From: Octopus vulgaris
Lineage: Eukaryota
Direction of reading: 5' to 3'
Length of the DNA: 64,000 bases
Assembly (NCBI GenBank): GCA_951406725.2
Contig: OX597825.1
Span: forward strand, 51,460,001-51,524,000
Shown: positions 3,775-30,958 of the stretch, piece after piece
Layout of the letters: each line of letters opens with the position of its first letter
Position numbering within the stretch: the first letter of the stretch is position 1
Program-made: the position numbers and the translations under genes
Notes under the pieces: model-generated
Told to the model about the DNA's origin: nothing
The model's input: only the letters and a program-made list of their open reading frames with translations
The model's database searches: none

Positions 3775-5960
<2,186 letters not shown>

Positions 5961-21099: not shown

Positions 21100-21880
21100 A
21101 ACCATCCCATAAACTTATTCTGGAAGATGGAAATAATAAGCGGTAGCCGGATTAAATAACAAAGTTCGGTGGTCCAAAATAATGATTGTAAATTGCTTCC
21201 ATCGTCGGATGAGACGAGTCTCCATCTTCACGGAAGAAATCATACATTTGAGGTGCTGACAGTTAGGAGATTAACATGTAATGATTTTGTGGAGAGCTAA
21301 GCGTATTCGAGGTGGGGAATTCGGGAGATATTCAGATAGACAAAAATGAGAAGAGAAAACAAATTTCAAGGGATAGGGGTGAATGAGGCTAGTAGGGAGG
21401 CATAGTAATAGTAGAAGAGGGGGAGGGTTGTTTAGGTAGTACGTGAATGGTAACTTTTGTGTTTGTTTGAATGAAGGCTATAGAATTAATGAGTAGAGTT
21501 GGGGGAAGATGACATCTGTCTGGTATTATTTAGTTGAATGGGGTTACTAAGGGTTGTATTATTGCCAGTAGGTGATTTAATTTGGGTGCAGAGTGAGAGC
21601 TTGGGTGTTCCGAGGACTTGTGTCAAAGTTTGCGTTTGTTTGAGGAGGCGATTATAGATCCGAAATTAGCTGTAGTGGAGTAGGATATTTTTACAGTTGA
21701 TTTCTTAAAAATAGGATATTATTTATGCTGTGATGGAAAATTAGATTTTAGGATTTTGAAAAGGGGTATAAATGGAGAAAGGTGGTGCGAATCATAGCAT
21801 TTCCCATTTCCTCAGAATGTTTAGAGTGTGTGGTTTTTGTAGGTTGATCAGGAGTGGGGAGCTTGTAGTTATGTATATCC
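21100..21880 (-). mobile_element. Decayed Penelope-like element fragment
   Basis: Minus strand: FAPPFS...FKILKSNFPSQHK*YPIFKKSTVKISYSTTANFGSIIASSNKRKL, homologous to VIWFTPPYS...RHFPVNHTYRKLFNRHNLKISFS in the 30.2 kb element. Confidence 0.65.

Positions 21881-27320: not shown

Positions 27321-27322
<2 letters not shown>
26750..27322 (+). mobile_element. PLE 3' UTR/pLTR fragment with hammerhead-like motif
   Basis: C-rich tract and terminus (GTCTTTTGT...GTAAA then (TA)n) parallel 25220-25395. CTGTCGAAGAGCATAGGCTCGAAACATA at 27192-27219. Flanked by (TA)n on both sides. Confidence 0.55.
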
Positions 27323-27369
<47 letters not shown>

Positions 27370-27374
<5 letters not shown>

Positions 27375-27610
27375 ATATAGAAGGAGCTTCTACAGGACTA
27401 GTACTGTTTCATTCAAGAGAAATCTTCAGGAAGTATGTAGGTCCCGGGTTGATTCGGGGTTAACCACAGTAAATAAGGTACTCAATACATAGCAGAGTAA
27501 AATTAATTTATTATATAGAAGGAGCTTCTACAGGACTAGAACTGTTTCATTCAAGATTTCTCTTGAATGAAACAGTTCTAGTCCTGTAGAAGATCCTTCT
27601 ATATAATAAA
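27370..27610 (-). mobile_element. Non-autonomous 138-bp hammerhead-containing retroelement (retrozyme-like): partial tandem plus inverted 5' segment
   Basis: Direct repeat with period 138 (27387 vs 27525). 50-bp inverted arms at 27507-27556 and 27561-27610 with one mismatch. (TA)n on both sides; no ORF. Confidence 0.75.
27387..27433 (-). ncRNA. Type I hammerhead ribozyme
   Basis: Minus strand: CUUC-CUGAAGA-UUUC(UCUU)GAAU-GAAA-CAG(UACUAGUC)CUG-UA/GAAG. The catalytic core is intact, stems I and III pair fully, stem II has 3 bp plus a basal U-U, and the GUA cleavage site falls after 27391. Confidence 0.8.
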
Positions 27611-27654
27611 TATATATATATATATGTATATACTTATATTGATATATATTATCG

Positions 27655-29245: not shown

Positions 29246-30958
29246 TTGAAAACACTATGAAAAAATACCGTTATACAAAGGGAAATTACTGTGTTATAAC
29301 TCTGCTTGGCTGCGTACTTATACATCGCTCGCATTTTTCGCCATAAAAATTATATAAAAATACATAAAAAATATATAAAAATATATAAAAATATATAAAA
29401 TTTTCTTGGGACATAACATAGAAAACATGTTCTATCTGTTTTCTTTAGGGGACCAAAAACGTAACAGAAATTTAGTCTCACGTGGGCATGATCCGAAAAG
29501 TTCTGTCCTTGTGTTTAGACATGTAGTAGGGTCTAAGCTGCTTTTCCAGATAAGCCATCTCTCCATGTCGCATAGACCGCACCTTCCGCTGCCGTTGGTA
29601 TAGGGCTTACATCTGGCCAAAATCTTCCAATGTATGTTATAATCGGCACCTTTGTCTCTTAAAGACCAAATATGATTAGATAATTGTGTCGCTTTTCTTT
29701 TGTTCCAGTGCCTAAAGATCAAAGTGTGGTTATTGAACCTGGCCTTGAAGTTACCCTCTGTAAGGCCCACGTATTTCTTCGTCGAAAGGCGAGGGCATCA
29801 TCTTTGTAGATGGCGAAATGTACGTCTTAACAGCTAATATGTACGCCTTAACAGCTAATAGAAATGGACCAGCACAAGATCGTTTTAGGAAGGATATTAT
29901 CCAGTTAATGAAATACTTCGGACTTAGTATAACTATAGATACTAACCTGACGGTTGTCAATTTCTTAGACGTTTCCTTAGATCTTAATAAGAATATTTAT
30001 AAGCCTTATAGGAAGCCCAATGATAGACTAAGTTTTATTAATGTAGGTTCATACCATCCCCTTATAGTATTCAAAAATTTAGTTTAAAATATTAGTAAGA
30101 GGATTTCTAGCCTCTCCTCTGATAAGGACATCTTCAATAGCGTTGCCCCAGTTTATAAAAGATAGTGGTTTTAGCGAAAAAATAAAATATACACCCATTA
30201 CTAGCCCAACAGTAAGGAAAAGGAATAATAGTAATAGGAAGGTCATCTGGTTTACGCCCCCTTACTCACCCGAGGTGGCCTTCAATATAGGTAAATATTT
30301 CCTAGCACTGATAGATAGACATTTTCCAGTTAACCATACTTATAGGAAACTCTTCAATAGACACAATTTAAAAATTAGTTTTAGTCCACTACATTAGTTT
30401 TAGTTTTAGACACCGTTTCGACGAAGAAATACGTGGGCCTTACAGAGGGTAACTTCAAGGCCAGGTTCAATAACCACACTTTGAGCTTTAGGCACTGGAA
30501 CAAAAGAAACGCGACACAATTATCTAATCATATTTGGTGTTTAAGAGACAAAGGTGTCGATTATAACATACATTGGAAGATTTCGGCCAGATGTAAGCCC
30601 TATACCAACGGCAGCGGAAGGTGCGGTCTATGCGACATGGTGAGATGGCTTATCTGGAAAAGCAGCTTAGACCCTACTACATGTCTAAACACAAGGACAG
30701 AACTTTTCGGATCATGCCCAAATGTGACTAAATTTCTGTTACGTTTTTGGTCCCCTAAAGAAAACAGATAGAACATGCTTTCTATGTTATGTCCCAAGAA
30801 GATTTTATATATTTTTATATATTTTTTATATATTTTTTATGTATTTTTATATAATTTTTATGGCGAAAAATGCGAGCGATGTATAAGTACGCAGGCAAGC
30901 AGAGTTATAACACAGTAATTTCCCTTTGTATAACGGTATTTCTTCATAGTGTTTTCAA

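Follow-up and report, generated by a model that had tools for sequence, protein, structure and literature searches.

A hammerhead-bearing 138-bp tandem in the Octopus vulgaris genome as a probable end-stub of a young Hydra-clade Penelope-like element

The window analyzed here is a stretch of 64,000 nucleotides of Octopus vulgaris DNA (contig OX597825.1, positions 51,460,001–51,524,000). At positions 27370–27610 it holds a compact insertion of 240 bp that consists of pLTR sequence only and lacks an ORF, placed between two (TA)n tracts recognized from the sequence, one adjoining the first terminus (27322–27369) and one at the other end (27610–27649). Read on the minus strand, the insertion is composed of an inverted A, a truncated A, a B and a complete A segment. 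Segment A (27370–27433, minus strand, 64 nt) is a complete hammerhead arm running to the first, tail-less terminus of the element; its onset lies 2 nt inside the native stem I. Segment B (27434–27507, minus strand) is the 74-nt tail to the second terminus and, in full-length copies, continues into the 5' UTR and the start of the ORF. It is followed by a second copy of A (27508–27556, minus strand, 49 nt), truncated at its 5' end, and by an inverted arm of A on the plus strand (27553–27609, 57 nt, 96% identical to the first arm), joined at the stem II region through a 4-nt microhomology overlap with the direct arm; the same inverted pair can alternatively be described as 51-nt arms with a spacer of 4 nt between them. 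The 138-bp period originates from the tail-to-hammerhead junction at 27433/27434 (minus strand), and the corresponding direct repeat (27370–27418 and 27508–27556) is 49 nt long with 98% identity at a spacing of 138, so that the tandem amounts to 1.35 copies (187/138). The first-pass annotation had reported a 138-bp unit without ORF in about 1.35 tandem copies, a 50-bp inverted copy of its terminus and a location within (TA)n, all of which are present, the inverted copy measuring 57 nt.

The same annotation had recognized a type I hammerhead with intact core and paired stems I and III, and this motif is indeed found on the minus strand (27387–27433), as judged from sequence, pairing and fold energies. 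The core CUGANGA/GAAA/NUH with its three stems is present in the form CUGAAGA (27429–27423), GAAA (27410–27407) and GUA, with a predicted cut between 27391 and 27390. Stem III has 4 bp and a loop of 8 nt, stem II has 3 bp and a U-U pair, and stem I is only 4 bp long at the locus versus 6 bp in the native pLTR, the junction costing two pairs. The hammerhead fold is accordingly less stable at the locus (-3.4 kcal/mol) than in the native pLTR (-7.8 kcal/mol); the minimum-energy fold of the latter includes stems I and III, whereas at the locus the hammerhead fold is not the minimum. The truncated upstream copy has no CUGA core, which leaves one complete hammerhead at the locus, not two. The core pattern occurs once in the 64-kb window against 0.05 occurrences expected, and 5 of 100 shuffled sequences also reached one occurrence. 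Folding of the 47-nt motif is no better than that of shuffled sequences (z +1.27), nor did the 138-mer give a significant z-score against its shuffles. A scan against Rfam returned no hammerhead family among 23 matches at E≤5, the matches being hairpin-driven ones of miRNA type under their gathering scores. Comparison of 63 arms from 44 loci not chosen by the core reveals frequent changes at N7, loop II and loop III, a different base at the G of the stem I 3' arm in four arms, and differences at the first core bases in a few arms probably cut short at that point; compensatory stem changes were not found among these young copies. The assignment to the type I hammerheads is made from motif and context, and catalysis is a prediction.

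The origin of the unit became apparent from a search against its own 2.8-Gb genome, in which 40 of 86 candidates were scored. The pieces occur elsewhere in the other order, A then B. In most of the 29 further loci retrieved the sequence is (TA)n, inverted A, A, B, (TA)n, and B followed by A was seen in none of the 29. Longer copies have other sequence upstream of A; in one of them (L032) it spans about 3.3 kb of microsatellite-rich DNA and reaches a frame of the GIY-YIG nuclease type, and in two others (L046 and L067) B continues into the start of an ORF. A full-length copy (L099, G000:C4:75253000+) combines these parts between direct pLTRs (pLTR 367–728, ORF 772–2913, pLTR 5151–5510) and is the only one of six full-length copies read with an intact ORF (713 aa, RT/GIY-YIG), the other five being frameshifted. 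Its pLTR differs from segments A and B of the locus at one position in 138 (63 of 64 identical over segment A; 123 of 123 over 27434–27556), in line with the youth attributed earlier to the insertion. Its ATG lies about 140 nt past the predicted cut, with both termini within the 5' UTR. The family has two termini 74 nt apart, the end of A and the end of the tail B. Its insertions lie in (TA)n and mostly consist of two arms placed head to head, one of which bears the tail; 5'-truncated insertions with an inverted arm and a one-sided tail are found. By these sequence comparisons the 138-bp unit is identified as the pLTR of a young Hydra-clade Penelope-like element (PLE), namely the hammerhead followed by the 74-nt tail that forms the 5' UTR. 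The Penelope-type anatomy proposed for the locus (tandem, inverted arm, (TA)n) thus recurs at other loci of the family, and the suggested search for an autonomous PLE sharing the terminus leads to L099, a partner in the same genome whose reverse transcriptase could do the copying. What does not hold is the idea of a stand-alone unit without ORF, since the unit is in substance the pLTR/5' UTR of an ORF-bearing PLE most copies of which are truncated and without ORF.

The L099 protein contains the motifs RWR, DKT, YRDD, CxCx5C, VY..YIG, CxxC and CxH and, judged by eye, no CCHH; the same set is given in the description of the Hydra clade (PMC8557442). At E≤0.001, 1,117 homologues were obtained among 7,992 scored candidates, and the full-length homologues listed are about 38–43% identical to it and nearly all unnamed. 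Pfam yielded no relevant match for the L099 ORF or its halves; among four homologues submitted, two (P0040 and P0087) match GIY-YIG/RVT_1. An initial guess of a Neptune identity, made from an N-terminal motif, was dropped because the Hydra motifs fitted. By its terminus and motifs, and by similarity to the published Hydra alignments (PMC8557442) judged by eye rather than from a tree, we assign the element to the EN+ PLEs of the Hydra clade. The L099 unit of about 4.8 kb exceeds the short length (<3 kb) of that clade because of a 3' region of 1.8–3.6 kb (L032, L099–L104) that consists largely of (TA)/(TG)/(TATG) microsatellites; the element likely spreads microsatellites, its own target included. 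Related sequences were also encountered. The window contains a decayed fragment of a diverged element of the same kind in inverted arrangement (29400–30870, 35–48% amino acid identity to the L099 ORF) and a short fragment 44% identical to this ORF (21590–21760). An N-terminal frame of another Hydra-like family lies beside a full-length copy (L102:1-450, minus strand), and at two loci (L063 and L064) the hammerhead is preceded, at a distance of about 310 bp, by another minimal motif of hammerhead type, which is unrelated to it and is probably the end of a different PLE family.

Exact matches to the hammerhead core number 6,524 in the genome, which corresponds to thousands of insertions, many of them two-armed. 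The tail-to-hammerhead junction, on the other hand, has a single match, the locus itself; if a gap of up to 30 bases is allowed, three matches at two loci are obtained. A single-copy locus, which the first-pass annotation itself had named as evidence against its mini-retrozyme, is thereby found outright. None of the 32 pieces listed among contigs of four sequencing runs on the window (9,819 more being outside the list) bridges the junction, which is uninformative either way, and four runs guessed to be RNA gave no joints with the L099 5' region, contigs being blind to ends and circles.

A second line of evidence comes from the loop III base, which marks two subfamilies, 'A' and 'T'. In 78 of 80 arms its identity goes together with that of a base in B (T-T in 66, A-C in 12), the arms being taken from 116 loci after exclusion of overlapping loci, the window locus, the array described below and the six full-length copies. 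Moreover, both arms of a fold-back insertion agree in this base in 45 of 47 cases and disagree in two. At the locus the complete hammerhead is of subfamily 'A', whereas segment B, the truncated copy of A and the inverted arm are of subfamily 'T'. Successive laps around one circular template should match; those of the locus differ, which is most simply explained by two source elements and speaks against the earlier proposal that a 138-nt circle was copied more than once around. A point mutation is possible for a marker difference of a single base.

The positions at which the family's copies begin give further insight into the RNA that is copied. In about half of the hammerhead copies the sequence starts with the 5' arm of stem I. 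Native upstream bases are kept in 3,029 matches, a count obtained with a pattern four bases shorter than the 6,524-match core, so that the comparison is approximate. Among the first 100 core matches listed, 45 have the native upstream sequence and 55 (43 loci) do not; 40 of these 43 loci were read by eye. Every one of the 40 has its start at the 5' arm of stem I, give or take a few bases; an inverted arm precedes the start in 37, a direct B in none. Where such a start abuts (TA)n, the base in between is G in 37 of 51 cases (A in 5, C in 8, T in 1), and neither the target nor the native upstream sequence supplies this extra G. A single G at the start was counted in 468 copies, a number that has no matched control and is weak alone. 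Full-length L1 insertions can likewise show an added G at their 5' junction, which has been attributed to the mRNA cap (PMC11702581), and, by analogy, the G seen here is likely a copied cap; alternatively, it may have been added without a template or copied, as 1 nt, from the stem I cDNA hairpin. We infer that the RNA of the element is capped, is copied uncut and starts at the hammerhead, the cut lying about 45 nt and the ATG 183 nt downstream of this start. No PLE start-site signature of this kind was found reported in the open-access literature. At the locus the arm lacks such a G, and its start falls 2 nt short of the stem I hotspot. A search for 5' ends at the predicted cut site gave 412 matches, of which 100 were listed. 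Read by eye, about half or more of the 100 are small deletions beside the cut; GAAG is intact at the junctions of about 20, and in about 11 the break comes 1–4 nt later; as the terminus is self-complementary at the cut site, such breakpoints are not evidence of in vivo cleavage. About 40 of the 100 listed matches, again by eye and in both subfamilies, show a loss of two bases exactly at the predicted cut, which may come from a slip of the reverse transcriptase, repair of cleaved RNA or a sequencing error in the palindrome.

Hammerhead starts joined to unusual partners are not restricted to the locus. Elsewhere they are joined to pieces of the ORF start of 33, 106, 193 and 307 nt, and five loci (L069, L070, L072, L073 and L078) carry internal deletions in which the hammerhead start is joined to varied points of the ORF start, each junction being private to one locus among those examined. 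A further locus (L108, G000:C7:106788700-106789220) is a trimer of hammerhead and tail with unequal units of 154/157 bp, which suggests that its junctions were made separately. Jumps of the reverse transcriptase between templates would explain both the private junctions and the unequal trimer.

Taken together, these observations lead us to propose, with a probability of roughly two in three, that the 138-bp tandem was made once, by a template jump of the reverse transcriptase between two RNAs of the PLE; that the locus is an end-stub of this element and not a retrozyme family appears very probable. An in vitro precedent is provided by a Poseidon PLE, which cuts both strands of AT-rich DNA, has two internal sites of reverse transcription start by which the tail is delimited, and takes mostly uncleaved RNA as template (PMC11167929); the precedent being from the Poseidon clade and not from Hydra, its transfer to the locus is by analogy. 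A capped RNA starting at the first base of stem I would be copied uncleaved after the endonuclease has nicked both (TA)n strands, with cDNA synthesis primed by each 3' end at one or the other terminus. A cDNA begun in the 5' pLTR would run off the 5' end of the RNA after about 66 or 140 nt and leave stubs, the two cDNAs being joined head to head through microhomology, and a cDNA that reaches the RNA 5' end would sometimes jump to another template position. At the locus, the cDNA primed at 27370 would have run off a subfamily 'A' RNA once 64 nt were copied, switched to the end of the tail (the B terminus) on a subfamily 'T' RNA, of which 123 nt would have been copied, and then been joined to an oppositely primed 57-nt cDNA via the 4-nt microhomology. 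Such a product would need no circle and is probably a dead end.

An alternative is that the same family inserted twice into one (TA)n, first as a one-armed 'A' stub of 64 nt and then as a two-armed 'T' stub landing flush on its 5' end; this would account equally for the subfamily mosaic and would again leave nothing other than PLE debris. The left 178 bp alone have the standard structure of the family, one-armed stubs abutting (TA)n do exist (51 matches), and reinsertion in the TA flank of an earlier copy is seen in L106, beside the C8 array described below. However, the TA tract between the two inserts must then shrink to 0–1 repeat, and successive insertion cannot yield hammerhead starts joined to internal positions of the ORF, so that template jumps do occur in the family; we consider this sequence of events rather unlikely. 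A considerably poorer prospect is the reading put forward initially, in which a 138-nt circular RNA, cleaved by the hammerhead, was reverse-transcribed for 1.35 rounds by the PLE enzyme. The exact 138-bp period, the intact core and an autonomous helper in the genome would suit it, circle-templated tandems have been proposed for PLEs (PMC4209133), and an origin of retrozymes from pLTRs has been argued for (10.64898/2026.07.22.740005). Against it stand the single-copy junction, which leaves no donor tandem in this assembly, the differing markers of the laps, and a stem I cut down to 4 bp in a weakened fold that is not the minimum-energy one. Moreover, the single complete hammerhead falls short of the two consecutive units by which retrozymes are recognized (10.64898/2026.07.22.740005), and 138 nt lies under the 150–450 bp range given for the repeats (PMC7229834). 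A local duplication of the hammerhead arm of a stub at the DNA level, or an assembly artefact, is likewise most improbable, as the extra arm is longer than both its neighbours, holds bases they lack, has the other subfamily marker and ends exactly at the terminus against (TA)n, even though palindromic TA-flanked DNA is error-prone and some copies within long inverted repeats contain clustered indels.

With the tandem of the locus read as the product of a single template jump, what survives of the first-pass annotation is the hammerhead, the PLE anatomy, the youth of the insertion and the PLE reverse transcriptase, and what finds no support, given the single-copy junction and the differing laps, is the 138-nt circular retrozyme. 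The locus itself is ordinary retroelement debris. The idea of a circle is better suited to two other tandems of the family. The first (G000:C8:91475000-91483400; L105, L085–L098) is a single array of a 271-bp unit with the full 6-bp stem I, composed of 43 nt of the upstream pLTR, hammerhead, tail and 89 nt toward and into the ORF start. About 5 units point one way and about 26 the other; the head-to-head arms extend to the two termini of the PLE, within (TA)n, and the 31 matches of its junction are all found there. A comparison of 29 full units showed 10 to be identical, with variants returning every 6–10 units, a period that points to a multimeric template or a duplication at the DNA level rather than to a single pass on a monomer circle. 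The array may be an assembly artefact; it is nevertheless the best retrozyme candidate seen, better than the 138-bp locus. The second (L107, G000:C15:44664020-44664330) is a 125-bp tandem of about 2.5 units with an identical junction twice. This junction falls on the predicted hammerhead cut, at the only such locus under that pattern, and is possibly a trace of cleavage in vivo. Both tandems are signs that the family can form cleavage-dependent or rolling products.

More tentatively, and with a lower confidence than an even chance would imply, the family might be read as showing the birth of retrozymes. The reverse transcriptase would run off the cap or the ribozyme-cut end of the RNA and jump, yielding mini-tandems without ORF and with private junctions (periods of 125, 138, 154/157, about 176 and 247, and 271 bp, and longer); those with a full stem I, such as the C8 array, would be nascent retrozymes copied from multimeric or circular RNA, the locus representing a failed draw. 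The family may be regarded as a natural experiment on how PLEs form tandem and inverted insertions and on the origin of animal retrozymes. It supplies an intact young ORF, a graded series of one-off tandems that extends to a long array, and a base-exact genome-wide signature, half of the arms stopping at stem I and an extra G being present in 37 of 51 starts that abut (TA)n, that predicts a capped, uncleaved RNA.

Several features of the locus have been described for PLEs in general, namely solo and opposite-strand hammerheads from truncated elements (PMC4209133) and tandem or inverted structures, tails and a (TA)n bias (PMC8557442); for the octopus family itself, no description was found in the open-access literature. 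The closest resemblance is to the EN+ PLEs of the Hydra clade as presented by Craig et al. (2021, PMC8557442), which share with it a single ORF with the RT followed by a C-terminal GIY-YIG, the motifs RW[K/R], DKT, a CxCx5C linker, CxxC, CxH and a nuclease core without CCHH, as well as a hammerhead in the terminus, (TA)n targeting, tandem or inverted insertions and a one-sided tail. The octopus element differs from that description in its unit length (about 4.8 kb versus <3 kb, the latter a general and not a strict value), its longer tail (74 nt versus 30–40), RWR in place of RWK, and its thousands of copies. Hydra-1_Obim, the sole cephalopod family among the Hydra elements listed there, has another N-terminus and another hammerhead, as judged by eye. 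The Poseidon element PAc (Frangieh et al. 2024, PMC11167929) resembles the octopus family in the two termini separated by a tail downstream of the hammerhead near the 5' region of the RNA, in its AT-rich targets and in insertions that keep the hammerhead uncut; in that account the start sites lie inside the ORF, which begins in the hammerhead, whereas both termini lie in the 5' UTR here. The hammerheads of pLTRs and truncated PLE ends reported by Cervera and De la Pena (2014, PMC4209133) likewise comprise thousands of solo motifs, often in close opposite-strand pairs, with an extra base at the start of stem II, but the minimal forms described there combine a long stem II with a stem III that is short or missing, in contrast to the 4-bp stem III with its 8-nt loop and the short stem II found here. 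Finally, the locus shares with the metazoan non-LTR retrozymes, as portrayed by Cervera and De la Pena (2020, PMC7229834) and Li et al. (2026, 10.64898/2026.07.22.740005), a type I hammerhead in a short, AT-rich, pLTR-derived direct repeat that is devoid of an ORF over its 240 bp. It departs from them in comprising 1.35 units of mixed subfamilies with one complete hammerhead, where retrozymes have two or more units in succession, every one with a full type I hammerhead, and in a monomer junction present at one locus, where that of retrozymes is inherited across loci or arrays.
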